Below are positions 48,099 to 64,000 of a stretch of 64,000 nt of DNA, one piece after another. Source of the DNA: an uncultured Gemmatimonadales bacterium. Its GTDB lineage: Bacteria; Gemmatimonadota; Gemmatimonadetes; Longimicrobiales; Gaopeijiaceae. Where the stretch lies: contig CAWELD010000003.1 of NCBI GenBank assembly GCA_963809895.1, positions 1,504,001-1,568,000 of the forward strand, in the 5' to 3' direction. Positions within the stretch are counted from its first letter, which is position 1. Each line of letters opens with the position of its first letter. The translations under genes were made by a program, and so were the position numbers. The notes under the pieces are model-generated. The model was not told the origin of the DNA and did not search any database. It was given only the letters and a program-made list of their open reading frames with translations.

Positions 48099-48140
48099 GT
48101 GAAGGACAGCGACGTGAACCGGCCCGATTCCGGGGGACCC

Positions 48141-48530
48141 ATGCAGGACCGACCATACACCGATCTGAGTCGCCGCGAGCGCCAGATCATGGACATCCTC
48201 TATCGGCTGGGCTCCGCGGCGGTGGCGGAGGTCCAGGCCGAGCTTCCCGATCCCCCGAGCTATTCGGCGGTGCGCGCCATGCTCGGGAAGCTGGAGGACA
48301 AGGGCCATCTGAAACACACGCAGGACGGCGCCCGGTACGTGTATCATCCGAGCCATCCCAGAGAAGAGGCCCGAGAGTCGGCCGTGCGGCGCCTGCTGCG
48401 CACCTTCTTCGACGGGTCACCGACCCGGGCGGTGGCGGCGGTGCTGGACCTGTCGGACGAGGCGATGGACGAGGCGGAGCTGGATCGGTTGGCCGAGATG
48501 ATCGACGAAGCGCGAGCGAGGGGGCGGTGA
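48141..48530 (+). CDS. BlaI/MecI/CopY family transcriptional repressor
   Basis: LSRRERQIMDIL, SYSAVRAML, LEDKG, FFDGS. Confidence 0.92.
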   Translation: MQDRPYTDLSRRERQIMDILYRLGSAAVAEVQAELPDPPSYSAVRAMLGKLEDKGHLKHTQDGARYVYHPSHPREEARESAVRRLLRTFFDGSPTRAVAAVLDLSDEAMDEAELDRLAEMIDEARARGR

Positions 48531-51080
48531 TGAACGTGACGATGACGTGGAATCCGACGGGACTGAGCGGCCTGCTTCTGGAGACGGGGCTCAGGAGCCT
48601 CCTGCTGCTCTCTCTGGTGGCGGGCGTGGCGTTGCTGCTCCGCCGGGAGTCGGCGGCCAGCCGGCACCTGGCGTGGTTCGCGGGATTGGCGGGCGTGCTC
48701 CTCCTCCCCTTGGCGACCCTGGGGCTGCCACGATGGCACCTGCCGGTACCGGCTTCGGCGTCGGAGCATGCGGCGTCGGTGATGGGCTCACTGGCGCCGG
48801 CGCGCGGACCGGCCCCCCGAGGCGCGGCGGTGGACGCCCCGGCATCGCGGTTGGAGGCCGGGCCCCCGGTGAGCGCGGTGGCTCCGACGGCTTCCGCGCA
48901 GCGCGAATCGTCGGCGCCGCGCCCCCTCGACGCGTCGGTGGCCGCCGGCGAGGAGACGCCGCCGAGCCTCCCCCTCCCCACCCTGCTGCGCACTGGTATG
49001 GGCGATCGGCGCGGGGCTGCTCCTGGTGCGGCTCGCCGCCAACCATGTCGCGACCCGCCGCCTCGAGCGGGGCACCGTGGCCTTTCCCGACGGTCGCGTG
49101 ACCCGCGAGACGGCGGCCATGGCCACCCTCCTGGGCCTGGACCGCCCGGTGCGCATGCTGCGGGGTGCGGAAGGCACCATGCCGGTGAGCTGGGGCCTGG
49201 TGCGCGCGACGGTGCTCCTGCCTGCGGGTGCGGAACGCTGGCATCCCTCGCGCCTGAGGGCGGTGCTCCTGCATGAGCTGGCGCACGTGGCGCGCCACGA
49301 CTGCGCCACGCAGGCCCTGGCCGACGCGGCCCAGGCCCTGTACTGGCCAAACCCCCTGGCCTGGGTCGCCGCGTGGCGGCTCCGGGTCGAGCGCGAGCAT
49401 GCCTGCGACGACCGCGTGCTGGAAGCCGGTGCCCGGGCGTCGGAGTACGCCCGCGAGCTCCTGTCGCTGGCCCGGGGATTCCAGGCGGGCCCCGCGCTGT
49501 CCACGGCGGCGGTGGCCATGGCACGGCCGGGCCGCCTGGCGAGCCGGCTCCGGGCCGTGCTGGCCGAAGGGCGCCGGCGCTCGTTGTCCCGCACTGCCGC
49601 GCTGGCCGTGACGGCGGGTGCGGTGCTGCTCACCGGGGCGGCCTCGGCGGCCACGCCGGCGGTGGCGGCTCCCGCGGCCGGGCCTGCAGAGACGACCGCG
49701 GCAGCCTCCCGGACGACGCCCAGCGCTCCCGCCGCCGACCAGGCCTCGGGGCCCGCCCCGCTGGCGCTTCCGCCGCAGGCGATGACCTGCGGCATGGAAG
49801 CCACCGGGTGGCAGAGCATGTCCCACCACTCCGACGACGGCCGTGAGCGCCTGCAGTGGTCCAAGCCCGGGTGCGAGGTCGACGTGCGCGTCGAGGGTGA
49901 GGTCCGCTTCAGCGACGACTTCATGGACGTGGCGAGCCTCGGCCGCAACGCCCTGTTCCGCATCGAGGAGAACGAGGGCCGCACCGAGCGCCGTCTCGAC
50001 GTCACGCCGGGATCCGGCGGCGACCCGACCTACGAGTACCGTGTGGACGGCCGCACGGAGCCCTTCGACGCCCAGGCGCGCGCCTGGTACCAGGGCATGC
50101 TCCTGCAGGTCTTCCGGCGGGGCGGCTACATGGCCGAAGAGCGCGTCGCCGCCCTGCTCAGGACCGGCGGCGTGGACGCCGTCCTCCAGGAGCTCGACCT
50201 CATCCCCTCGGACTACGTGTCGGCGCGCTACGTCGAAGAGCTCATGCGCCAGGCCGACCTCAGCGAGGGCCAGGTCGTGCAACTGGTGGACGAGGCGAGA
50301 GACCGGGTGGACTCCGACCACTACCTGGCCGGGATCCTGACGGCGCTGGCCGAGAACCACGATCTGACCAGTCCGGTCATGGACGCCTTCCTGAGGGCGT
50401 CACGCTCGCTGGACTCCGACCACTACCGGGCCCAGGTCCTCACCACGGCGCTGGACAAGGGCACGCTGCAGACGGGACAGGTGGAGGCGCTGCTGGCGTC
50501 GGCCTCGGAGATCGACTCCGATCACTACCTGGCCCAGATCCTGGACTCGGTCGCCGAGCGCTACGCGCTGAACCCGTCCATGCGCGGCGCGTACCTGCGG
50601 GCCGTGGAGTCCATCGAGTCCGACCACTACCGCACCCAGGTGCTGTCCGGGCTCCTGGACCGCGGTGACCTGGACGCGGGCGAGCTGTCCGAGGTGCTAC
50701 GCGCCGCCGGGTCCATCGAATCCGATCACTACGTCACCGAGATCCTCAGGAAGGCCTCGACCCGGGAGCTGTCGGGCCCGCTCCAGGACGCCTACCTCGA
50801 CGTGGCCCGGGGCATCGAATCCGACCACTACAAGGCGGAGGCGCTGACCCTGCTGGTGCGGCGCGACCAGGTTTCGAGCGGGTTGTTGGCAGGCGTGCTG
50901 GACGCCACGAGCTCCATCGCGAGCGACCACTACAAGGCCGGCCTCCTGGTGGAGATCGCCCAGCGTCACACGCTGAGCGGCGACCTGCGCGACGCCTACA
51001 TGCGAGCCATGGACAGCGTCGGATCCAAGACCTACCGGGGCCGGGTGGCCGAAGCGCTCCTGGATCAGGGGGGCGACTAG
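48527..51080 (+). pseudogene. BlaR1-like M56 metallopeptidase with C-terminal SDHY repeats; one frameshift near 48990
   Basis: N-terminal SAASRHLAW in frame 48527; HELAH, YWPNPL and EREHACDD in frame 49026; removing one base at CTGCTGcGCACTGGTATGG restores LLALVWAIG. Could be a sequencing error. Confidence 0.85.
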
Positions 51081-51119: not shown

Positions 51120-51195
51120 TGGGCGCTGAGGGATTCGAACCCCCGACCTCCTGCTTGTAAGGCAGGCGCTCTAAACCAAGCTGAGCTAAGCGCCC
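51120..51195 (-). tRNA. tRNA-Val(TAC); CCA not encoded
   Basis: Reverse complement GGGCGCT TA GCTC AGCTTGGTTTA GAGC G CCTGC CTTACAA GCAGG AGGTC GGGGG TTCGAAT CCCTC AGCGCCC A folds as a full cloverleaf. Confidence 0.97.
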
Positions 51196-51281: not shown

Positions 51282-52526
51282 TCACGCCCGCTCCCGAAGC
51301 TCACCGCCGCCGAGCACGACGTTGAGCATCGTCTCGGGGTCGGCCTGCTGGTACGAGTCCTTGAGCGCCTTCGTGCTCTTCCAGCCGCCGGCCGCCGCAA
51401 CATCCACGTCGGGTAGGTGCTTCCGCTCCGTGGCCCACTTCCTTCGGTAGGCGTGCCAGAGGGAGCCGTTTTGCGGTTCGACGCCGGCCAGCTTCTCACC
51501 GGCCCTCAGCCACTTATCTGCGAGGTGGCGGGTCATGGGCTGTTCCCGGTCCTCCGGCGACGGGAACAAGGGCGCCGCGCCGATGCCCGGCCGGTCCTTG
51601 CGGATACGGTCGAGCGCAGCCCGCACCGCCGGTCCGATCGGGACGACGGTCTCGCGGTTCGTCTTGTCGGTCTCCGCTGGCCAGCGGATCGCTCCGTGGG
51701 GTCCTTCGTCCAGCAGGAGGTCTCGGTACCGCAGGGCGCACACGGCGGAGATTCGCCGGCCAGTGCCGTTCACGATGTCGAGCAGCTCGCTCAGGTAGCT
51801 CCGTTGCGCCTTTCGCTGGTCCGTCCAGCGCGCCTCCATCTCGACTTGGTCCGACACTGCCCGGATGGCTTCGTATCGGTCCTGCGTCGCCACAGGGCGC
51901 CGAGGGTTCTCTTCGTGCGGTGCGTCGAAGCCTCGGACGGGGTTCTCGCGCATGAGGTAGTGGCCCTCGGGCATGCGCCACTTCGAGGCCCAATTGAACA
52001 CCCACCGCAGCCACTTGCAGTCGGCCTCCACGGTCCGGGCGCGCACCGGCCGGGGCTTGGTGTCACCCTTGGGACGTCGGCCTCGCGCGTCGATCATGCC
52101 GGACGCCCGAGCGTCGATGAACCGCTCCCAGTCCCGCAGGGCCACGTCGTGCGGGTCCAGATCACTTCCGAGGACCCGAAGCCACATCTCGAACCGTCGC
52201 TCGTCGGCGCGCTGCTCGCGCTGGCTCTTGCGCGGCGTCCTGTGGCGCCTGTAAAGGCCGAAGACTTCACCGAGGGTGGTCTCCCCCTTCGAGTGCCGTT
52301 CATCGGCGTCAGCGACGCATGCAGCCTGCTTCAGGGCGTAGGCCTTCGCACGGTCCCGGTCCCGGTAGCCCAATGAGCGCCGAACGTGTGCTCCGGCGTC
52401 CCCTTTGTTGGGGTCCCAGTACCGGACGTACAGCGGTCCCCCCGGGGTGCGCTCGTAGACGGTGATGGTGTTCGGGCGGTCCCCCGCCGAGAACGACCAT
52501 CGCTTCCGCTTCTTCCGCTTCACCAC
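51282..52526 (-). CDS. Tyrosine integrase
   Basis: Catalytic R (GTGRRISAV), K (TDKT), HxxR (WHAYRR), W (GGWKS), Y (DSYQ). Confidence 0.92.
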   Translation of the reverse strand: MVKRKKRKRWSFSAGDRPNTITVYERTPGGPLYVRYWDPNKGDAGAHVRRSLGYRDRDRAKAYALKQAACVADADERHSKGETTLGEVFGLYRRHRTPRKSQREQRADERRFEMWLRVLGSDLDPHDVALRDWERFIDARASGMIDARGRRPKGDTKPRPVRARTVEADCKWLRWVFNWASKWRMPEGHYLMRENPVRGFDAPHEENPRRPVATQDRYEAIRAVSDQVEMEARWTDQRKAQRSYLSELLDIVNGTGRRISAVCALRYRDLLLDEGPHGAIRWPAETDKTNRETVVPIGPAVRAALDRIRKDRPGIGAAPLFPSPEDREQPMTRHLADKWLRAGEKLAGVEPQNGSLWHAYRRKWATERKHLPDVDVAAAGGWKSTKALKDSYQQADPETMLNVVLGGGELRERA

Positions 52527-52599
52527 GATCCCTCCTGATGCTGTAGGCGAGTGGCGAGAGCCTCATGCCCCCGCTCACGCCTATCCTGCGGTCCATCCT

Positions 52600-52971
52600 T
52601 CATGACGCAAGCCTCGTCTCGCGAAGCTCGGCGGCGATGTCGGGGCCGTCCTGACTCGCGGCGCCGGGGAATGAGGGGTGGTTCGGGCGGGTGGGTAGGT
52701 CGCAGCGCCGGATGCGTGGGCTCCCCGACTCGCCGGCGTTGGGGATCTTGCCTTCGGCGACTCTCTGCTGGAGCGTCGAGTACGCGTAGCCGGACTCCTC
52801 GGCGGCCTCCTGGAGCGTGAGTGACTGCGTCCGCCACGCGTGGATGGCATCGTCCAACTCGCCAGCGTAGCTGCGGGCCATGGATGCAGCGTCGTCCAGC
52901 CCCCTTCGGTCGAACGTCTCCGCCTCGTCGAGCCAGCGCTCGCATAGGTCGTGCAGGGGCTCCACGTTCAC
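52600..52971 (-). CDS. Excisionase-like helix-turn-helix protein
   Basis: LTLQEAAEESGYAYSTLQQRVAEGKIP; directly upstream of int. Confidence 0.75.
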   Translation of the reverse strand: MNVEPLHDLCERWLDEAETFDRRGLDDAASMARSYAGELDDAIHAWRTQSLTLQEAAEESGYAYSTLQQRVAEGKIPNAGESGSPRIRRCDLPTRPNHPSFPGAASQDGPDIAAELRETRLAS

Positions 52972-53186
52972 GGCGCGGGCACCGCCTCGGGCTCGGGGCT
53001 GCTATCCACTTCGGCGTCGTGACGTTGACGACGGCACCACTTTCGCGACCCGAACTGCGCCGCGCCGACTAGGTTTGCTTGAGCCTGAATGGAATCAACA
53101 TCATGGACGCGGACGCCAATCCACCTCGGTGGATCGAGGGCCTGGCGTCGCTCGCAGGGCGAATTCAACGAACCGGGTGCACTCAT
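52968..53186 (-). CDS. Small hypothetical protein
   Basis: ATGA overlap upstream and GTGA overlap downstream suggest translational coupling. Confidence 0.35.
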   Translation of the reverse strand: MSAPGSLNSPCERRQALDPPRWIGVRVHDVDSIQAQANLVGAAQFGSRKWCRRQRHDAEVDSSPEPEAVPAP

Positions 53187-53989
53187 GACTGCACCTTCGA
53201 GGCTTCGCACCTGGCACAGAGCGTGGCGGTTGGGCCGACTCTCGCACCGCACATGTCACAAACTGATCGCCCTCCTCTAGATGGCACCCGGAACGAGTCG
53301 TTGCGCCTCCCTTCAACGGCGCCACTGACTTCCGGCCGGCTCGCCCGCGCGCCTGCGCTAACCACACCAGTATTCCCACGATAGCGGCTGTTCTTGCCTT
53401 CATTGTCTTGGGTCTGATGCCTATGTTGCTTGGGGGTGTCGGCAAGGGGCTCCGCGGACTCCGAGCGGGGGCCGGCGCCCTGGGCTTCCTTGGGCGCCGT
53501 GGGGGGGGGTCGCTCGGACCCATCGGTATGGGTATCGGAGCATCGACGTCCGATTCGCTCGTCATTGCAGTGCGGGCACACCCCCGACTTCTTCCATCGG
53601 CCGCAATTGCCACAGGTCGGCGGCTCCACTTGGAATCGTGGTAGCCGGCGATGCGGATCAGGGTGGGGCGCCCGGTACCGGGGAAGGTCTTCCGATCAAT
53701 TTCACCGTGTTTCTCGAGCTTCTTGAGGAAGCGCGATACCTTCGATTGGGTCCAGCCCCACCTTTCTTCGAAGAAGCTGCGGGGACCCGTGGCAGGCACC
53801 TCGCGGGGTAGAGTAGCCTCCCTGCTCGCTACCGTCAGGCGCCCATACGGCCGGCGTTCGGAGGTCGACCCACGCCTCACGATAAGACACCTCATGACGA
53901 GTGGTCGACGGGTGTAATGGATGCTCTCGGTCCGAGAAGGGAGCGCGCGGAACTTTGATCCATCCGTTCTTGCCGGCGAAGCTCGTCAT
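53183..53989 (-). pseudogene. Frameshifted phage-type replication initiator (wHTH) with possible C-terminal CxxC motifs
   Basis: GWIKVPR...SYREAWVDL in one frame; RWGWTQSKVSRFLKKLE...TLIRIAGY in a second; CGNC/CPHC/CDMC/CARC in ORF 53183-53629. Confidence 0.65.
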
Positions 53990-54730
53990 GACCTTCTCCG
54001 ACTCGGGAATTCTCGTCGACATTGCTCCCGTTCACGTTGTCCTCGGTGTTGCACAGTAGACACTGCGTCGTCACTTGTCCTTCCTAATCTGAGTTTCTTG
54101 CTCCGAAAGCAGGTGAGGCACCGAGGGCCTCACTCTCCGCTCTTAGGCCTGTCCGTCGGCGCGCAGGCACCCCCGCGAGTATTCCAGAGTCCTCTTCGAC
54201 AGCCTGCCACGTTGCTGATGCATCTTGGTCCTGGGCTTGAGTCGTGGTCGGCGCGCCAACAGAGGGTTGGCGTCAGACGGATCGTAGGGACGAGTCCTCC
54301 GATTCCTCAAGGTCTTGCTGTTATACTGTGAAATCGCCTCATCTCTTACGTTGGGGTAGGGTCCCAGCAGTCCTCCGACGCCACGCTCGGCTCGGCGCGT
54401 GGGGTACCCATGACAGAAGGGGTAGCCTCGTCAGCGACTCCACCATAGAAGGGTGCGGAGCCCTCTGTTTGTCGGAGCGACTTGGGCCTTACGTTGGGCT
54501 ATGCCGGTTGACCACGATCGGTCTCTTGGTGGCGAACCACTGGCGATGAACACCGATCCCGGCTCGGATTCCTCCTTGACGTGCGTCGCAGGGGAGCGGT
54601 CCTCGAACACGCGCCTTCGTCCGCGGGGGCTGCCGATGCCGTGGTGGCGGCGTGGCCCTGCAGGTTGACATGGCCCGTGATCGGGTCAGTCTCACGAGCA
54701 CCCCTCTTCACCTCAGGAGCCTCCTCGAAC

Positions 54731-55141
54731 ATGCGACTTCTCTCCACCGCCCTGCTTGCCGCCTGCCTCTTCGCCCTCGCCTGCCGCACCACCTTCTCTC
54801 CGGGGGCGATCAACGCGCCTATGCCGGCACAGCTCGTGTCCACGGGGCTGGCCCGCGACTGGGGGTGCACGAAGCCCCAGGTTGAGAACCGAGCAAGGTT
54901 CTTGGCCGACAGCTTGGAGTACGGCCTGTACTACATTCCCGAGGTGGGCTGGGACGCGTGCGAGCTGCTCGCGCGTGATGGCCTGTGGGATGAGATCGAG
55001 GAATCAGACTCCCTGGCCGTCTGGCACTACTACGTGGCCGGGCGAGACCGGACCGTGACCCTGCGAGCCGACGAATACGGGCGATGGACGGTGGATGAAG
55101 TCGACTGGGAGGAAGGCAGAGGCCCGAACCGACGCCGCTGA
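54731..55141 (+). CDS. Hypothetical lipoprotein
   Basis: AGGAG upstream of ATG 54731; MRLLSTALLAACLFALAC lipobox. Confidence 0.7.
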   Translation: MRLLSTALLAACLFALACRTTFSPGAINAPMPAQLVSTGLARDWGCTKPQVENRARFLADSLEYGLYYIPEVGWDACELLARDGLWDEIEESDSLAVWHYYVAGRDRTVTLRADEYGRWTVDEVDWEEGRGPNRRR

Positions 55142-55238
55142 CGTCCCACATGGCGGGGGGCAAGGCCAATGAGCGGTTGGCTTCCGTCAGGGCGCCGGCC
55201 GGACCTGCCATCGAACCCTCGCGGGCCTCCCGAACTCA

Positions 55239-56036
55239 TCACCAAACCACCCGTTCCCATTCGCCGCCCGCCCGAGCACGACGCGCCGCGGCCACGATCG
55301 CCATTCGTTCAGCCACGGTAAGGTCATCAGAGACAACGTTCGCGGTATTCGCTGGATCGACCAGACGAGCAGTTCGGAACTCGTCCCCGAGGTAGCGAAG
55401 CACCTCTCCGAAGTTGTCAGCCACGGCCCCCGTGCGCCGTCCCCGAGTCGCGTTGAGTACCGCCAGTTCGAGTGCAAGCGACGGGAACTCGAGTCCGTGA
55501 AGTGCACGCCATATCTTCGTGAGCCGTACCTCCTCCAGCCGGCCGGAATCACGCACGAGGTTGATGTGCTTCGCCACGTCGGTCTGTGTCCAGCTATCTG
55601 CCTTTCGCCGGTACAGAGAGTGTCGGTTCACGAACCCACTCTGAATCCGGGCGGGCACGAGATCGATCTTGTGGTCCAAGACTTCCACACCGATCGAGAC
55701 GTTCTGCGCCCTGGGGCTCCAGCCCGAAAAGCCCGCCCGCTGGAACAGGGTCCAGTAGATCTGGGAAAGCGTCTCCGGGACGTCGTGTCGGACGGAGATG
55801 AACAGGTCGAGGTCCGTTTGACCTCCCACGGCGGTTCCCTTGGCGTTCGATCCGGAGACTTCGATCCCTCGTAGGTACTGTCCGCCCCACTCGCGCACCA
55901 CAGGATCGATCCATGCACGGAGCATGGCGATCGTGATCGGGCCTGCGCCGGTCGGGTAGCGCCGGAGCACCTGGCGGAGGTAGCGGTCTCCCTCAGACTC
56001 GAGCAGCAGCCCGAGGAGGCCCGAGTGCGTCGTCAT
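55239..56036 (-). CDS. CD-NTase (cGAS/DncV-like nucleotidyltransferase) B, short form
   Basis: SGSNAKGTAVGGQTDLDLF (GS...DxD), QNVSIG, KIDLVPA (third Asp), VRLTKIWR, FPSLALEL, DPANTAN. Confidence 0.88.
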   Translation of the reverse strand: MTTHSGLLGLLLESEGDRYLRQVLRRYPTGAGPITIAMLRAWIDPVVREWGGQYLRGIEVSGSNAKGTAVGGQTDLDLFISVRHDVPETLSQIYWTLFQRAGFSGWSPRAQNVSIGVEVLDHKIDLVPARIQSGFVNRHSLYRRKADSWTQTDVAKHINLVRDSGRLEEVRLTKIWRALHGLEFPSLALELAVLNATRGRRTGAVADNFGEVLRYLGDEFRTARLVDPANTANVVSDDLTVAERMAIVAAARRARAGGEWERVVW

Positions 56037-56791
56037 CAGCCGTTTCGGAGCTCCTCGCTCCAGATATCGAGGTCCATCGCGAGCGCAGTCCCAAGGCGCT
56101 GGAGTTCACGCATTAGTGCTGTGAAGAAGCCCACGAGCGCGGTGTCCTGATCGTACACGACCATCTCTCCGCCGTCCGTCGGCAGTTCAAACGCGCCGGC
56201 CTGTAGGGCTACCCCCAGCTGCAGCTCATCCTGTCCGTGGAGCTCCTCAAGGACGTTGCGGAACGTCTCCCCGAACGGATCGGCGTAGCTGGAGTCTACG
56301 GCCAAGATGCCACCAAGGATCAACTGGTCCGCCGGGTCCTTCCCCTTCTTCGGCTCGCCCTCGTAGGTGTAAATCGGTCCCGAAGTCCGGGCCAACGCTC
56401 GCACTGACGCCACTTTTTCCGCCGTCTCCCGAAGGGTGGCGCTGGAGATCTCCTGCTTGGCGTCGAACACAGCGTAGACACTCTCCGCTGGAACGAAGCA
56501 GGCCGTGCCCGCTTGGAAGAGAAACGGGGAGTACTGAGCGTCGTGGATGATGACGTCGAGCTGTCCAGAGACTCCACCCGCGTGATCTACGACGAACCCG
56601 CTCTGGACGGAGTACCTTCGCGGGAGGTAGGACGCGAGCATGTCTCGCCACCGCAGCTCGGCAGCAGCACCCTTCTCACCCTGATGAGGCATGATCCGAC
56701 GGTTGGCCGACAGTGCGGCCTCCATCTCGTCCTGCTTGGCCCGCATCAACTCGGCCACCGTAGGGGCCCGATCAAGGCGCTCAAGCGTCAT
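56036..56791 (-). CDS. nucC: NucC-like cyclic-oligoadenylate-activated endonuclease
   Basis: HQGEKG..AE..W..ML..YLPRRY, FVVD, QLDVIIHD.QYSPF, VPAESVYAVFDAKQ, KVASVR.L.RTS, ILGGIL, LQ..GT: end-to-end match to recalled NucC motifs. Confidence 0.88.
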   Translation of the reverse strand: MTLERLDRAPTVAELMRAKQDEMEAALSANRRIMPHQGEKGAAAELRWRDMLASYLPRRYSVQSGFVVDHAGGVSGQLDVIIHDAQYSPFLFQAGTACFVPAESVYAVFDAKQEISSATLRETAEKVASVRALARTSGPIYTYEGEPKKGKDPADQLILGGILAVDSSYADPFGETFRNVLEELHGQDELQLGVALQAGAFELPTDGGEMVVYDQDTALVGFFTALMRELQRLGTALAMDLDIWSEELRNG

Positions 56792-57239
56792 CCTCGTCTC
56801 CGTCCTTGCTGGGAAACTCCTGGTGAGAGCTCGGCCCGAGCCAGGCGCCGACCTGCTTCCAGACCTCGTAGTACTGCAGCCACAGTGCGGCCCACATCAC
56901 GACTGTGCCGGCAAGCGACTCAACGTCCTTCCAACGCCACTCCTTGGGCCAGTGGAGGCACAGGCTGCCGTCAGGCCATCGATGCGGCGCATCCGGATCG
57001 AGCCGTGGGCAGTCCACAAATACGCTCGGTGGTCCCCGCCGTTCGTACACGACCCGAATCCTGTACGAGTCGGAGTGGGGGCTGGGCTGTAGGTCTCCCG
57101 TCCACGTCACACGCCGGTCCCTACCCACCCCCGCTTCCAAACCCGGGAAGTCCCGCGCCATCGCCGCGATTTGCCCCCGCGGGTCCCGCGGCCGGCGATA
57201 CTGGCCCGGGCCGTGCCCGAGACTACTTCTCCGGCCCAT
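56781..57239 (-). CDS. Stand-alone E2-like protein of type II (short) CBASS
   Basis: W.G.LQP.P.S..Y, PHRWPDGSLCLHWP (catalytic Cys), WLQYYEVWKQVGAWLG; overlaps the cyclase A stop. Confidence 0.82.
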   Translation of the reverse strand: MGRRSSLGHGPGQYRRPRDPRGQIAAMARDFPGLEAGVGRDRRVTWTGDLQPSPHSDSYRIRVVYERRGPPSVFVDCPRLDPDAPHRWPDGSLCLHWPKEWRWKDVESLAGTVVMWAALWLQYYEVWKQVGAWLGPSSHQEFPSKDGDEDDA

Positions 57240-58269
57240 GGAAGGTCGTCGGCCTGCTTTGAGACGATCCAGAGGTCGCCGTCGCCGAGATGGCACCGGA
57301 CGACGAGACGAATGCCTTTCCGGGCGTGGCGGCTACAGCGGCTGCGAGCGCTTCGTTCTCCACTTCGGCCTCCGACGGCCAGAGCGTCGGGTAGACCTTC
57401 CGCCAGACCGCATGCGCGTCCTCGTCGCAGTCCGCGTCGACTGCCTTCCGCGCGGCCGCCGCCGCTTCACGAACCCTCCGCATGAACGCCTCGAACTCGT
57501 CTCGTCTCCAGCCAGAGGAGATCACTGTGTGGAGCTGGGGGTCCAGCACGCGTGGCACACCATCCCCATCATCCATCAGCTTCTCCCACTTCGACGCCAC
57601 ATGCTCGAAGAAGTGGCAGACGTTCTGCGCGGTGGACCGCCCTTCGAGGACCACGTTCCCCCCGACGACCGAGTGGTAGACGATCACCTCCAGGAGGTAG
57701 CTCTTCGGGCGCCGGTACACCATCTGCTCGTCCCGCCACGCCTTCACCAGCTTGATCAGCGGGATGAGCTTCTTGGCGTGATCCGCGTTGGCGGCCGAGA
57801 GACTCTTCCCGTAGCCGAGGGGGTCGGAGTTGATCCACTCCTGCTTGCTGCGATCCGGTATCCGCAGGGGAGCCTCAAGGCCCTCGTCCGCGACGGCCCC
57901 GACGATATCCAGGCAGAGGTCGTGAGCCGGGAAGTCAAGCCGGATCGAGCGCCGCTGCGGCGAGGCCTCTGCGGAGGCATCCGGATACTCGCTGAGGACG
58001 GTCTTCAGCTCACGGAGAACGCTCTCCGGGGTCCGGTCGAGGGCCTCATCCGGCAGGAACACCAGCGTATCGACGTCCTTGATCTCGCCGATCGCCGTGT
58101 GTCGTCCATACGACCCGATCAAACGTGAGTGTGGCGACGCCGTCTCGAAGTCGTGTTCCTTGAGCCACTCCCGAACCTCTCCGGGCAACCGCTGAGCGGC
58201 CGTGAGCCGGTCGTCAGATGGATTGACCTTCTTGAGCAGGGCCGAGAACGCGAAACGGGATGAAGCCAC
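57223..58269 (-). CDS. CD-NTase (SMODS) cyclase A with C-terminal FHG tail
   Basis: IGSYGRHTAIGEIKDVD, QRRSI, LDIV, NSDPLGY, LIKLVKAWR, KSYLLE; flexible tail ending RPTTFHG-PEK; GGAGG RBS before GTG. Confidence 0.9.
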   Translation of the reverse strand: MASSRFAFSALLKKVNPSDDRLTAAQRLPGEVREWLKEHDFETASPHSRLIGSYGRHTAIGEIKDVDTLVFLPDEALDRTPESVLRELKTVLSEYPDASAEASPQRRSIRLDFPAHDLCLDIVGAVADEGLEAPLRIPDRSKQEWINSDPLGYGKSLSAANADHAKKLIPLIKLVKAWRDEQMVYRRPKSYLLEVIVYHSVVGGNVVLEGRSTAQNVCHFFEHVASKWEKLMDDGDGVPRVLDPQLHTVISSGWRRDEFEAFMRRVREAAAAARKAVDADCDEDAHAVWRKVYPTLWPSEAEVENEALAAAVAATPGKAFVSSSGAISATATSGSSQSRPTTFHGPEK

Positions 58270-58398
58270 GGCGAACCTCCAGCGGGATCGAAGACACCCA
58301 GAACTGGAGATCTGCCCGCGTGCTGGGGAGAGGCTCCGCAGCGCAGGCCGCTACCGTCGAGTGTCGAAATGGTCTGTGGGCACACTCGTACCCTTCGC

Positions 58399-58471
58399 AA
58401 TGTGGCGTGAAAGCCGCGCGAGGTCAACCCTATGCAGTGGTATGAACTTAGGAGGCCACAATATGTTGTGG
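58399..58471 (-). promoter_or_regulatory. Putative CBASS promoter with tandem NrdR-box-like palindromes
   Basis: TTGACC (58427-58422) - 17 bp - CACATT (58404-58399); boxes CAACCCTATGCAGTGG (58425-58440) and CCACAATATGTTGTGG (58456-58471). Confidence 0.6.
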
Positions 58472-58547
58472 TACTTCGGCCCCTGTTCGGGAGCGCGGCA
58501 TCGTCGTCAAGGCCAGGAGATTCGCGAACACCGTTTCAAGGACTTTC

Positions 58548-58736
58548 TCAACGGGCGGGGTTCAAGAACTTTCCCGTCCCGGCATCCGCCTTGGGCTTGA
58601 TGAGGTCTCTTTCGTGCGCCAGCTCGTCGAGGTCCCGTTGCGTGGCCGAGAGGGCCTTGTCGGCCTGGACCATTTCCCGGTAAAGCTGCTCGCCGGGCCG
58701 AACCACGTCGATCGGCAGGAAGTAGGTGCGGGCCAT
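58548..58736 (-). CDS. Small hypothetical protein
   Basis: ATG immediately after the upstream TAG; GGAGG RBS; coiled-coil-like. Confidence 0.45.
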   Translation of the reverse strand: MARTYFLPIDVVRPGEQLYREMVQADKALSATQRDLDELAHERDLIKPKADAGTGKFLNPAR

Positions 58737-59000
58737 CTAGGCCACCTCCCCGTCGGGTCCAAACGCAATGTCCAAGAACCTGGCGGCCTGCCGAAATCCC
58801 CGAGAGATGGCATCGTCTTGAGCCTGTTTCTCCCGTTCGAGCATCTCGGCCTGGTGCTCGACATGCGCCGCACCGTTCTCCAACAGCTCGCGCACCCATT
58901 CCGACGTCCACTTCCCGAGCAGGGACGCCGCATGATGAACGCGGTCGTACATCTCGGGGGTCATCCTGACCGTCAAGGTCTCTGACTTCGTTCTCGCCAT
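58737..59000 (-). CDS. Ribbon-helix-helix DNA-binding protein
   Basis: MARTKSETLTVRMTPEMYDRVHHAA...TSEWVRELL; AGGAGG RBS. Confidence 0.7.
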   Translation of the reverse strand: MARTKSETLTVRMTPEMYDRVHHAASLLGKWTSEWVRELLENGAAHVEHQAEMLEREKQAQDDAISRGFRQAARFLDIAFGPDGEVA

Positions 59001-59174
59001 CTGTGGTGGCCCTCCTGTCTGCAATGCGAGTCGCGGACGCCGCACCTCGTGTGCGACTCGTCACGGCGACCCGCCCAGGTCGTTCGCCTCCCAATCTGAA
59101 GATCCGACCGGAATGGGCAACGCAGATGTCGGCACATCCGAAATACGTTGCGCGCACCTGCGCGTCAGGCCGGG

Positions 59175-59217
59175 TTGCTTCGATGTTGAAGCGTACGTAT
59201 AATTCATTATACTACGC
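59175..59217 (+). promoter_or_regulatory. Promoter of the second recombinase overlapped by an inverted repeat (putative recombination/operator site)
   Basis: TTGCTT - 17 bp - TATAAT (59198-59203); IR GCGTAcGTATAAT-TC-ATTATACTACGC (59191-59217). Confidence 0.7.
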
Positions 59218-59246
59218 ACCGACACTGCGACGAGGGGCCCCCTAGC

Positions 59247-60257
59247 ATGTCCGGGAAGCAACTGGAGATCGGCAACCTTCTGACCGACGCCAAGACGCCC
59301 TCGCTGGCGAGCGACGGAGGCTCGTTGGAGCAGCTCGCGAAGACCTTCAAAGATGGCCTCAGCGAGAACACGCGGCGCGCCTACGCACAGGATCTCCGGG
59401 ACTGCGCTCACTTCCTGGCGCGCCATTCCGGCGAGGTCGACCCGGACGTCTCCGAGCTGCCCGAGGGTGCGGCGTACGTGGCCCGGAAGCTTCTGCCCAA
59501 TGGCCAGGGCATGGCCAACGCCCTTGTAATCGGGTACCGGAGCTATCTTGGGGAGAAAGGCCGGGCCCCCGCCACGGTCAACCGCCGCCTCGCGGCAGTG
59601 CGCTCGCTGGTGAAGGCGGCCCGGTTGTTCGGGATCGTGACGTGGAAGCTGGAGGTCTCCAGCGTGAGGTCGCGGTCCTACCGGGACACGTCGGGTCCAG
59701 GGCTCAAGGGCTTCAAGAGAATGATGGCCAAGGCCAGGGCCGACGACACAGCCAAGGGTGTGCGCGACCGCGCAATCCTCCGGCTGCTATGGGACCTGGC
59801 CCTCCGCCGGTCCGAGGTCGTGGGGCTCGATGTCGAGGACGTCGACCTGGAGCGCGGGCGCCTCATGGTCCACGGGAAGGGGCGAGGCGAGCCTGAATTG
59901 ATGACACTACCGGACGGGACGAAGGCCGCGCTCGGGCGGTGGCTGGAGGTCCGAGGCGAGCACGATGGGGCCCTCTTCACGAACTTCGACCGGGCCAGTA
60001 AGGGCGACGGGCGCCTGAGCGGCACCTCGGTCTACCGGATGGTATGCCAGCGCGGAGAAGATGCGGACGTGAAGGACGTGCGCCCCCATGGCATCCGGCA
60101 CGCTGCCATCACGCACGCGCTGGACAAGTTCGACGGCGACGTTCGGACGGTATCGAAGTTCAGCCGACACCGGGACGTGCGCGTGCTCATGACCTACGAT
60201 GACAACCGCGAAGACCTCGGCGGCGAGGTCGCGTGTACGGTGGCGGCTGCGGTGTAG
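59247..60257 (+). CDS. Xer-like tyrosine recombinase/resolvase
   Basis: SENTRRAY, APATVNRRL, RDRAILRLL..ALRRSEV, HGKG, RPHGIRH, SRH, TYDD. Confidence 0.92.
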   Translation: MSGKQLEIGNLLTDAKTPSLASDGGSLEQLAKTFKDGLSENTRRAYAQDLRDCAHFLARHSGEVDPDVSELPEGAAYVARKLLPNGQGMANALVIGYRSYLGEKGRAPATVNRRLAAVRSLVKAARLFGIVTWKLEVSSVRSRSYRDTSGPGLKGFKRMMAKARADDTAKGVRDRAILRLLWDLALRRSEVVGLDVEDVDLERGRLMVHGKGRGEPELMTLPDGTKAALGRWLEVRGEHDGALFTNFDRASKGDGRLSGTSVYRMVCQRGEDADVKDVRPHGIRHAAITHALDKFDGDVRTVSKFSRHRDVRVLMTYDDNREDLGGEVACTVAAAV

Positions 60258-60299
60258 GAGGAGGATGTCGAGCGTGCGGCTCGCTCCAAAGCTGAACAG

Positions 60300-61850
60300 G
60301 GCGGCCAGCTCCTGCTACGTCTCGGAATGTTCTCTCCGTGCATGCCGCCAAGAACAGCCCCCCCAATTCGGTGAGGATGGAGTCTTCATCCGAGAGCGAG
60401 CGCATGCGAAAGGGGGCGCGAGTCGGGATGTTGTCTGAGGTCACCACGCGTCCGGCCTTCCAGCGTCGGAAGAACACGGGCTCTCCACCCCACCCAAGGA
60501 AGGAGGCCGGGCCGGCAGAGAACCGCTCCCAGAGCACATCGCCTTCTCTTCGAGACGGTTCCGTAGCCATGTCGCGATGGGACATGCTGCATGAAGCCGT
60601 TGACGACGCCGGCGACCGCTCTGGTGGTCGGCGAGCTAGCCATGTGAGATCCACGGTCGCCAGGCCCTCATCATCTATCCACGGTCTGATCGGGGGTGAC
60701 GCGTCCTGCACAGCCTCGGCTAGTTCCTCGACCGCCTTTCGTGGCACTGCCAATACGCTTGGCAGTCTTGCGGACCGCGATGATGCCATGGCCACCGTGT
60801 ACGGAAACTCCCTGTGCTGGAGGGCGTCCCTAATCGGATAGAAGCTCTCGATGGCTTTCGTAGTCCGGTCACTCGACACGAACTCCGCTAGGCTTGAGTT
60901 GTGTTGACCGATCAGCTTCATTGCCCGTGATTCGCCCTTCCTGGGAAGGCGAAGGGTCCGCTCATGCTTCCTGAGATTCAGGGAGTACACATCGTCGGCG
61001 AGAGCGGCCAAGTCGTCAAACGCCCCGGTGGCCAGCATGTACTGGAATGCCAGATGGAAGAGCGCGCGAGCCTCCGTGTCGTTGTTCGCGGTCTTGAGCG
61101 AGGCGATTTCGGCTGCATCCGTGGTGCGACACAGGAAGTCCAATCGCCTTGCGAGCCCCGAAAGCCGCCTCTCGCGTCTGCCTCCCCCAAAGAACCATGC
61201 CCGCCTGAAATCGGGGAACACGAGGTCCTTTCGGAAGAGGTAGTAGAAACCTTCGTTACCCCAAACCCCGGGTTGGCCTCGAAGTGTTCACGCGCGACGC
61301 ATAGGAGGCGAAGATGGTTCAACAGTTCAGGCCAGGTGCAATAGATGGCGTACCTCCGGCCCGACCTCGGTAATGACGACACGGCCGCATGAGACCCCAC
61401 GACGAGATCCACATGGCGCCTCAGGAGGACCGCGAGGTATTCGATTGCCGCACCCTCCGATCCCTCGCCCTCAAGGCTACGAAAGTGCTCATAGGTCCGG
61501 TGCGGACCTAGCAAGGAGCGCGACGTGGGCCGGTGCAACACCACATGGCCCTCGTCGACATGAACCTCCCCGATCGTGGCTTGATTCCCTGCCAAGGGCC
61601 TTGGGAGGTCTTGGTGCCCCGGTATGAGGCAAAGGTCGATGAAGTCGTAGTCGGCCAACTCCGCCAACCGACCGATGGCATCGTCGGACATGCCGACGAG
61701 GGCGGTGGGCCCGACGATCACCGACACCTCGGGTTCGACCCATCGCACCCGATCGTATGGATTACCTGTATCAGTACTGAAGCGGGTCATTCCTCTCGAA
61801 CGGGTCGAAGGTGGTTTCAGGTGACTTCCGATAGCCGACATCCGGTCCAA
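60300..61850 (-). pseudogene. Frameshifted gene with HEPN-like RxxxxH motif
   Basis: ORFs 60978-61850 and 60187-61221 join by a single-base shift near 61255 (FGV/NEGFYYLFR); RDALQH motif; further shifts near 60620. Ends approximate. Confidence 0.5.
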
Positions 61851-61989
61851 GCATCGCAGCCCGCGCCCTCCGCTGTCGAGCAGTTCCCGCGTTGCCCTGA
61901 CCCTCAGCAGCCCTACCCTAGAGTGCGTAAAGACGCATTATCGTACCCAAAGATAAGCCGAATCTGGCAAATTACAAGCACATTCGAGG

Positions 61990-62800
61990 TGATCCCCATC
62001 GGTGGCAATCTGACCCGCGGGGAACGCGCCGCCCGGCGTGACGCATGGGCCAAGGAAGACGGGTTCCCCACCTGGCACGAATACGAGGGCTACGCGGAGG
62101 GACTTCAGGGCCACGAGGTCTGCGGCTCCCCGAAGACCAAGGAGGAAGCGCCAGGACTTCCCGGGACCGGGTCCGAAACGACCCTGTCTCCGCTATCCGG
62201 TCACAGGAATGACGCGCTGCAAGCTCCATGGCGGCGCTTCCTTGGTCGGATCCGCCAACCCGCACTTCCGGCACGGGAAGCGAGAGTCGCTTCGTCGGGC
62301 TCCCTGACAAGATCCGGGAACGGGCCGAACAGCTCTTCGAGGACCCCAACCTCATCTCGCTCCGCGACCGGATCGCCGTGAACGACGCCCGCGAGCGCGA
62401 GCTCTGGGAGACGCTGGACAACGGAACGTCCGTGGAGTACTGGGAGAGGGCGCGGAACGCCCTCGAGGACATGCGGCGAGCCAGGGCCAACCGGGATGCG
62501 GGGCCGCCTCGCCGAAGCGTTAGACGCGGCTGGACGCGGTCGACGGATCAAGCGCTGCGACAGGAAAGCCATCTGGAGCCAGATTCGCGAGGTCCAGGAG
62601 CACGGGCGGAAGCTTCGTCGGGAGGAACGGCAGCTCATGGAGGCCGCCAGTCACTACCTCAGGGCCGACGAAGCTAAGCTGTTCGCGATCCGGATTCTGG
62701 ATATGGCCATCGAGAGCATCCGGCAGGTCGCTACCGTCGGCGAGCAAGAAGGCGATCTCGGACCTACTCGAAGCGCGTGGAGAGCGCTACTGGAGTCAAG
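61990..62800 (+). pseudogene. HGGxSTG-domain / terminase-small-subunit-like gene, several frameshifts
   Basis: VCGSPKT...PCLRYPVTGMTRCKLHGGASLVGSANPHFRHGK, then helical DPNLISLRDRIA; split over four ORFs. Ends approximate. Confidence 0.65.
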
Positions 62801-63318
62801 CCGGGGGCTGACCCCTTCATGGGCTTCGTCGAGATCCAGGGGTCCCTCGGCGGGTTATGCCGTATGGTGCTCCGATCCGGCGCGCGGTCATATCGGAATT
62901 GGCAAACGGCCGAACCCGAACCCACAGAGGTAGCGGCACGGCTCTTCGGCCGGGTGGATGTCGCCGCAGGTCTCGCAGATGGCGAGCCCGAGGCGCTCCG
63001 CAAGGTCCGAGTCCTTCTCAAGAGCGTCGGCAACGCGGCCCCACGCCTCGACGCCTATCTCCATGATTCCAACGCCGCCGTCACTGACACCGTTCTGCAT
63101 GATGCTCCTCGGTAGGGGGAGGAAGGTCACTACCTTCCATCCATAGCAGCCGAGGTATCAGGTCTACAAGGTGTAGCCCGTGAAGGCTGGGCCGCCCCCG
63201 CAATTCCCGAAGACCCCAACTCTTGAGCGTATGGGATCATGAACAAGATGAAGAGATACCACGGCAGAGACGCTCATGGGTGCGGTAGGCGGCGCGTGAC
63301 AGCGGTAGCCGATCCTTC

Positions 63319-63501
63319 TTCGAGGCGGTCGAGTTCGGTACCCTTCGCTGGCTTCCGTGGTTGAGTCGCCACCGCCTGTTCGAACCCATCGGTGACATGC
63401 CGCCCACTAAGTACGAAGAGGCATTCGTTCGCGCTCAATACGCTCCCGCAGAGCTATTGAGACCCAACCGAAACTGTCTCCGGTGAACCCGGAGGGATTC
63501 A
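63319..63501 (+). mobile_element. IS3-family remnant: OrfB C-terminus and right inverted repeat
   Basis: Manual translation FEAVEFGTLRWLPWLSRHRLFEPIGDMPPTKYEEAF; ends TCTCCGGTGAACCCGGAGGGATTCA, resembling an IS3-family IRR. Confidence 0.8.
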
Positions 63502-63559
63502 TCTTCGCTGATTATGGGACGCTTGCCCCGCCCAGTAGCGGACGCCATGCCCCCATGAT

Positions 63560-63776
63560 GCCTATCCCTACCCTGGTCCAGGTCGGCCTGCTTGATCAAG
63601 CTGCGGATCGTCTGGGCCGAGGGCTCGAACCCTAGACAACTCCTCAGGTGTACGACCTGCTCGGACCAGCTCGACCATCTGCTCCCGAAACTCGGGAGGG
63701 TACGGCGATCTCGATCTCGCATGATGAACTCCTTTCTCCGTAGAGATCTGGTGTCCACCAAACCGGGTCAACTCCA
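63560..63776 (-). mobile_element. IS3-family remnant: left inverted repeat and frameshifted OrfA
   Basis: TGGAGTTGACCCGGTTTGGTGGACACC end; YPPEFREQMVELVRAGRTPEELS / FEPSAQTIR...KQADLD split across frames. Confidence 0.85.
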
Positions 63777-63803
63777 CTCTTCGCCCTCCGGCTCTCCACC
63801 CAC

Positions 63804-64000
63804 TCACCTAAGAGTGAACCGCACCAGCGCAGCCACACCCACCTCATCGACTTGGTACCCCCAGCCAGTCCCATTATTGATGTATCTCGGATAGAGCCCC
63901 GGCGGCGCCTTGAAACGCGCCAGTAGGACCCCGTCAGGAGCCAGAAGGTCAAACGTCGTACTGTCCCCGCGGGCAAACGGATGGGGGTCCAAGTCGGCAC
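63804..64000 (-). CDS. 3' end of a probable 6-bladed beta-propeller-type protein (partial)
   Basis: FDLLAPDGVLLARF...GYQVDEVGVAALVRFTLR resembles the C-terminus of this family; runs off the window. Confidence 0.5.
   Translation of the reverse strand, partial: ADLDPHPFARGDSTTFDLLAPDGVLLARFKAPPGLYPRYINNGTGWGYQVDEVGVAALVRFTLR

Follow-up and report, generated by a model that had tools for sequence, protein, structure and literature searches.

A CBASS operon in a Gemmatimonadota bacterium places two dissimilar cyclases around a single NucC nuclease

A stretch of 64,000 nucleotides from an uncultured Gemmatimonadales bacterium (GenBank assembly GCA_963809895.1, contig CAWELD010000003.1, positions 1,504,001 to 1,568,000; the whole stretch is called the window here, and positions are those within it) carries a four-gene operon of CBASS (antiphage signalling based on cyclic oligonucleotides), in which two CD-NTases (nucleotidyltransferases resembling cGAS and DncV) flank an E2 protein and a single NucC nuclease. 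The operon is a composite, combining an E2-regulated cyclase (CdnA) and an unregulated minimal cyclase (CdnB) around one NucC, because its CdnA-E2-NucC part is an E2-CBASS and the CdnB family otherwise forms a two-gene type I CBASS. None of the parts is from a new family, and the two parent architectures have been catalogued before; what we describe looks like the merger of two known system types, giving a variant that is rare, recurs and has apparently not been described. The analysis shows the gene identities and their order, the intact motifs, the recurrence of the layout and the fact that each cyclase family pairs with NucC separately elsewhere. That both cyclases feed the one NucC is a reading to which we give an even chance.

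The four genes are intact, overlapping open reading frames (ORFs) on the minus strand, which span 55239-58269 in the order CdnA, E2, NucC, CdnB. CdnA (57223-58269) encodes a CD-NTase of 348 residues, matching PADLOC model PDLC00822 (4.7e-59) and Pfam SMODS (1.8e-16), and is followed by the gene for an E2-only Cap2-like protein of 152 residues (56781-57239; PADLOC E2 model PDLC00876, 6.8e-39). The single effector is the NucC endonuclease (56036-56791; PADLOC PDLC00745, 6.2e-75; Pfam DUF6602, 4.6e-27), and the last gene encodes CdnB, a minimal CD-NTase of 265 residues (55239-56036; PADLOC PDLC00803, 1e-75). These matches bear out the four gene identities proposed in the preliminary description of this DNA, and the junctions, read from the sequence, are likewise as given there. 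CdnA and E2 overlap by 17 nt, counted from the E2 ATG to the CdnA stop, E2 and NucC share 11 nt (ATGACGCTTGA), and NucC and CdnB meet in a TGATG, where the stop of the one and the start of the other overlap by 1 nt. Because of these stop/start overlaps, the four genes are best regarded as a single transcription unit. A consensus scan of 54700-58900 returned no promoter-like and no terminator-like sites, no more than were obtained with shuffled sequences. Among sequencing runs, none of RNA was listed, and three metagenome runs contained 0.05-0.13 of the words sampled. Every motif checked in the four operon proteins is intact. Both cyclases carry the GS and DxD..D motifs and are as dissimilar as had been claimed: they share 22% identity across 121 residues, and therefore are no recent duplicates. 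As is typical of CBASS, the effector lies in the same operon, its gene overlapping both adjoining ones; CBASS as classified, however, has one cyclase per operon, whereas here two CD-NTases flank E2 and NucC.

The CdnA-E2-NucC part is an E2-CBASS (type II short). CdnA starts with a GTG located 6 nt downstream of GGAGG. It has the catalytic residues G52 S53, D65xD67 and D121, and 46 relatives all keep the GS, DxD and D positions. Among solved chains, the best matches are the CD-NTase 9sa4 (9.5e-20), Pseudomonas aeruginosa CdnD (6p8u) and the cyclic AMP-AMP-GMP synthase CdnD (7ljl/7d48), so that the solved chains nearest to CdnA are of the CdnD/CdnC type. At its C-terminus, a PT.(F/Y)HG motif is followed by 0-10 variable residues across the listed homologues, with G345 being invariant in 46 sequences. 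The longest ORF of the E2 gene spans 56781-57296, opening with a GTG at 57296; the ATG at 57239 yields the 152-residue protein, a length that fits the E2 models of 148-158 positions. The protein matches SmE2 of Serratia marcescens (8hsb_B, 1.6e-9), the Cys of its SLCLHW motif aligning with SmE2 C101, and models for E1-E2 or JAB found no match among the four operon proteins or the 23 flanking ORFs in 51282-64000. The operon thus combines the features of E2-CBASS: a stand-alone E2 with a catalytic Cys, no E1 or JAB, and a cyclase C-terminus suited to E2 linkage. In the S. marcescens system, E2 is reported to act as a protease on its cyclase and to become linked to the cyclase C-terminus (PMC12948482), and the glycine motif of CdnA with its short variable tail fits this published processing and linkage. 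Most likely, E2 controls CdnA via this conserved C-terminal glycine motif, with a covalent link being predicted from it.

Two other genomes of this class carry the same three genes but no CdnB (loci L111 and L112, 43-48% identity). No second cyclase stands beside them in L112. In L111 (5906-7670), they are followed by a gene resembling 4-(hydroxymethyl)-2-furancarboxaldehyde-phosphate synthase (PF04476, 5.3e-39; 249 aa) and then by a different cyclase, PDLC00823. An extra gene shared downstream of NucC was considered and ruled out, the 249-aa ORF of L111 and the 216-aa ORF of L112 being unrelated; no counterpart of either adjoins the loci L003 or L089 introduced below. Among the relatives we also came across cyclase-E2 fusions (~488 aa, PF18144 plus PF26395) and one 375-aa gene call joining PF26395 to a NucC domain (set P0150, P0203, P0208, P0210, P0280).

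The effector aligns over residues 13-249 with NucC of Escherichia coli MS115-1 (6p7o, 4.7e-37). Its active site reads LDx30DAK (D79, D110, A111, K112), as compared to the published nuclease motif IDx30EAK (10.1101/694703), and is invariant in 24 close relatives. According to the same work, NucC is activated by cyclic tri-AMP (cA3), which converts trimers into hexamers that cleave DNA non-specifically (10.1101/694703). Given its full-length similarity to the E. coli enzyme, the window NucC is predicted to bind cA3 and to undergo the same trimer-to-hexamer activation. When genomes of the phylum were queried with it, 5 of 401 had a match, the genome of origin included, and none of five genomes of the same genus had one.

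The match of CdnB to PDLC00803 runs from one end to the other (3-253 of 253 profile positions), and that to Pfam SMODS (0.0032) lies below the cut-off. The catalytic residues S61 G62 S63, D75xD77 and D125 are invariant in 27 family members, and also in the 15 relatives nearest to CdnB (55-74% identity), S61 being present in at least 90% of these. The last residue of CdnB is a W, and a glycine motif for E2 is absent. Its AlphaFold model has a predicted local distance difference test score of 91.7, and with the family profile as with the model, CdnC of E. coli MS115-1 and CdnD of P. aeruginosa come out as nearest. By sequence and fold, the two cyclases are thus nearest to cyclic-trinucleotide synthases.

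The CdnB family is large, with at least 1507 homologues at E <= 0.001 and a typical size of ~252 aa. An alignment-based scan of genome contigs with CdnB gave 408 matches, of which 80 loci were kept (a single-protein scan gave none). At 68 of these, NucC comes immediately after the cyclase and in the same orientation, the pair being a two-gene type I CBASS. Nine further loci lack NucC within the flank that was retrieved; three are special cases (L003, L031, L071). The 23 metagenome loci comprise 12 with cyclase-NucC, three with NucC-CdnB, one with NucC further downstream, and seven that are truncated or without NucC. Whereas in the type I pair the cyclase lies upstream of NucC and accessory genes are absent, in the window NucC precedes CdnB and both lie behind CdnA-E2. 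Viral contigs scanned with CdnB and NucC alignments contained no relatives. At one family locus in Scytonema (L076, 2846-6744), a PDLC00803 cyclase with no NucC in its flank lies ~750 bp from an opposite-strand Cas10/Cmr2 of a type III-B CRISPR locus.

The four-gene order is not confined to the window. The sole further copy in the genome collection is L003 (206-3183 of a 4268-bp contig from an Acidobacteriota metagenome-assembled genome), with 50-75% identity. Two metagenome loci, L088 and L103, show E2-NucC-CdnB as far as the contig end, L103 with frameshifts; across L003, L088 and L103, the E2-NucC-CdnB order is kept at 61-72% identity. L089 has NucC-CdnB alone, without CdnA-E2, and opposite-strand ORFs upstream. 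For protein relatives, we approximated linkage by taking contigs of identical bp size as one, an indirect proxy that for CdnB covers the best 120 of at least 1507 homologues. By this measure, close relatives of CdnA, NucC and CdnB share contigs of 7297 bp and 351140 bp, and those of CdnA and CdnB a contig of 7519 bp. Four of the 50 close NucC relatives, counting the window, are linked to both cyclases, 18 to CdnA only, six to CdnB only (five on contigs <3 kb, one on a contig of 5440 bp) and 22 to neither. Contigs of 22136, 22499, 24365, 15456, 12450, 10750, 93725, 75617, 19298, 8537 and 8050 bp are among those that by this measure carry CdnA and NucC but lack a CdnB match. The same order was therefore found elsewhere, as the preliminary description had asked: degenerate in L003, in part in L088 and L103, and by proxy on three more contigs.

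Phylogenetic trees of NucC and CdnB, midpoint rooted and with sampling biased towards CdnB-seeded loci, are informative on how the composite arose. In the NucC tree of 86 sequences, the five loci with NucC followed by CdnB form one clade with full support in the Shimodaira-Hasegawa-like approximate likelihood ratio test (100), sister (94) to the NucC of L111/L112 and outside the type I clades in which CdnB precedes NucC. The CdnB tree unites the window with L088 and L089 in a single clade (100) inside the type I family. Most simply, this is explained by the capture of a type I cyclase behind the NucC of an E2-CBASS, with a later loss of CdnA-E2 in L089. Relatives that by the proxy are CdnB-linked and CdnB-free interleave in the NucC tree, which suggests repeated loss, or gain, of CdnB. 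An earlier proposal, that the operon is a fusion of a CdnA-E2 and a NucC-CdnB module, finds support in the occurrence of CdnA-E2-NucC without CdnB (L112, L111) and of NucC-CdnB without CdnA-E2 (L089).

Set against described systems, the operon resembles each of several in part. With the E2-CBASS of S. marcescens, SmCdnG-SmE2 (8hsb; PMC12948482), it shares the CD-NTase followed by a stand-alone E2 with the aligned Cys and without E1 or JAB. In contrast to that system, the window CdnA is nearest to CdnC/CdnD-type synthases, the effector is NucC, and a second cyclase stands behind the effector; clade G makes up 73.65% of E2-CBASS cyclases in that study (PMC12948482). Type I CBASS as exemplified by XpCdnC03-NucC (10.1101/2023.05.21.541620) likewise couples a minimal cyclase with NucC, PDLC00803 being the CdnB family, whereas in the window the order is reversed and embedded behind CdnA-E2. 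Type III CBASS (CdnC-HORMA-TRIP13-NucC of E. coli MS115-1 and the CdnD system of P. aeruginosa) has the same effector and active-site motif, and its cA3-making cyclases are those nearest to CdnB; unlike these systems, the window operon has no HORMA or TRIP13, and CdnB is ~50 residues shorter than CdnC. A further parallel pairs the diadenylate cyclase CdaG and a CD-NTase with a shared 2TM-beta effector (PMC13640721). There, too, two synthases adjoin one effector, but they differ in fold, use dinucleotide signals and serve a membrane effector, whereas the window has two CD-NTases and a nuclease. The 2026 preprint asks whether the shared effector answers both cyclases (PMC13640721). Searches of Creative Commons papers in PubMed Central and of bioRxiv found no description of a second CD-NTase sharing one NucC, a scope that leaves aside the Millman 2020 census and its supplement. 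Within that scope, the suggestion that the two-cyclase, one-NucC layout is undescribed holds, and the layout is real and recurs.

CdnB-family cyclases also adjoin other defence systems. In nine of the 103 CdnB-seeded loci, the retrieved flank contains a second cyclase (L003, L015, L022, L031, L061, L065, L091, L104, L107). In L107 (3875-6514), a type III CBASS with the order TRIP13-HORMA-cyclase(PDLC00809)-CdnB-NucC, an intact PDLC00803 cyclase sits between the system's own cyclase and a single NucC. L104 (4992-9830) is a type II CBASS with two tandem PDLC00803-type cyclases, CdnB-CdnB'-E1E2-JAB-NucC, of which the upstream 253-aa copy has SGA for SGS at the GS motif and the 346-aa copy is standard. 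In L022, a type II system that is complete and has an effector to itself (cyclase-E1E2-JAB-SAVED peptidase) is followed by a CdnB-NucC pair, and L065 has a one-transmembrane effector, a cyclase and CdnB, with no NucC. The juxtapositions are thus mixed, with some sharing one NucC, some being plain tandems and some orphans. Because the second-cyclase copies are scattered over the CdnB family tree, such juxtapositions must have arisen several times. Tentatively, and with less confidence than in the shared use of NucC in the window, we propose that minimal PDLC00803 cyclases may be plug-in second sensors, repeatedly wired beside the NucC of regulated CBASS (window, L104, L107).

We favour the reading that both cyclases of the window feed NucC because each family pairs with NucC on its own elsewhere, both resemble trinucleotide synthases and the catalytic residues of CdnB are kept. 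The activity of the two cyclases, their products and their convergence on NucC are what we infer from these features. Under this reading, CdnA, under the control of E2, and CdnB, without a known regulator and translationally coupled to NucC, would each sense infection in its own way. Each would make a cyclic trinucleotide, most likely cyclic tri-AMP, which would assemble NucC trimers into active hexamers; these would degrade DNA and abort the infection, resulting in a design of two inputs and one output. Several findings weigh against it. The four-gene form is rare, the NucC query having found one close relative, in L003's own genome, among 401 genomes of the phylum of L003. In this copy, a frameshift splits CdnA over two frames, and an in-frame deletion has taken ~37 residues from CdnB, the GS motif among them; this could be real decay or an error of metagenome assembly. 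By the indirect proxy, 18 of 50 close NucC relatives are linked to CdnA without any of the best 120 CdnB relatives, so that CdnB looks dispensable. Orphan CdnB copies adjoin unrelated systems (L065, L091, L015), so that such neighbourhoods can arise as a by-product when defence islands are shuffled; plain tandem CBASS, each with its own effector, exists (L022), and adjacency by itself is therefore no proof of design.

The main rival draws on the same findings. It takes CdnB for a remnant. A CdnB/NucC cassette of type I would have come to lie beside an E2-CBASS, one NucC would have been deleted, and the operon would now act as an ordinary E2-CBASS in which the surviving cyclase is redundant or being lost. 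Complete tandems, orphans without NucC, the degenerate L003 copy and the many close CdnA/NucC relatives that by proxy lack CdnB and interleave in the tree are all as this account would have it. We nevertheless regard it as unlikely, though deserving serious weight. The CdnB of the window is intact, and its catalytic residues are kept among the closest relatives. Its indicative dN/dS (ratio of nonsynonymous to synonymous substitution rates) is well under 1, at 0.15-0.24 as compared to about 0.09-0.10 for NucC, with dS being saturated. Moreover, the order from NucC to CdnB has persisted over ~30-40% protein divergence, and the start of CdnB is translationally coupled to NucC. Appreciably less probable still is that CdnB is active and yet provides no second trigger for NucC. 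It could make another nucleotide that tunes CdnA, E2 or NucC, address an unlinked receptor, or be a guard or backup that may respond to phages blocking or sponging the signal of CdnA. For a guard, there is precedent in the minimal constitutive cyclases of PanDA/Panoptes, ~50% of which lie within 10 genes of CBASS (PMC13640721), and a CdnB without its own regulator, ending in W instead of a glycine motif, would suit that role. As NucC is turned on, not off, by its ligand (10.1101/694703), however, a constitutive cA3 maker would be lethal. Moreover, NucC is the near-constant partner of the CdnB family at the kept genome loci, and no other receptor gene was found in the operon or the PADLOC-scanned flanks. 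Finally, CdnA and CdnB might form a heteromeric cyclase, with one subunit regulating or completing the other, as their co-operonic position and translational coupling would allow. We consider this very improbable, given that each family pairs with NucC by itself in other genomes and that many close CdnA relatives appear without CdnB by the same proxy.

The operon is on a horizontally acquired island. Rightwards of ~51 kb, the GC content drops from 0.70-0.77 to 0.60-0.69, and the left edge of this stretch is marked by a tRNA-Val gene (51120-51195, ARAGORN) and a minus-strand tyrosine integrase (51282-52526; Pfam Phage_integrase, 9.5e-10). Just upstream of the operon, the minus strand has a NikA-like mobilisation ORF (58737-59045), whose Pfam NikA-like match of 4.5e-05 does not reach the curated cut-off, and the plus strand a second integrase (59247-60257; Phage_integrase, 7.6e-20). 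With the tRNA and two integrases, the lower-GC stretch is probably an integrative mobile island, whose right end was not found inside the window. The operon flanks scanned contained no other PADLOC defence proteins. The view that selection keeps the operon intact among frameshifted neighbours gained no support, as the flanking ORFs had no Pfam, PHROGs or PADLOC matches that would reveal split genes. Left of the tRNA, in the high-GC core, genes for a BlaI-like repressor (Penicillinase_R, 9.3e-27) and for an M56 peptidase protein of the BlaR1 type (1.7e-22) lie at 48099-51080, just before it.

For the way in which CBASS cyclases sense infection, the operon offers a compact natural test case, with two dissimilar cyclases, one E2-regulated and one bare, placed around a well-understood effector. 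It could also guide annotation tools in the treatment of two-cyclase operons. Should CdnB turn out to be dispensable, the locus would document how defence-island shuffling merges and erodes systems. If, however, minimal PDLC00803 cyclases are plug-in sensors, one nuclease would answer two differently triggered cyclases, which may widen the range of phage cues that are detected or provide a fail-safe against blocking of the regulated arm.

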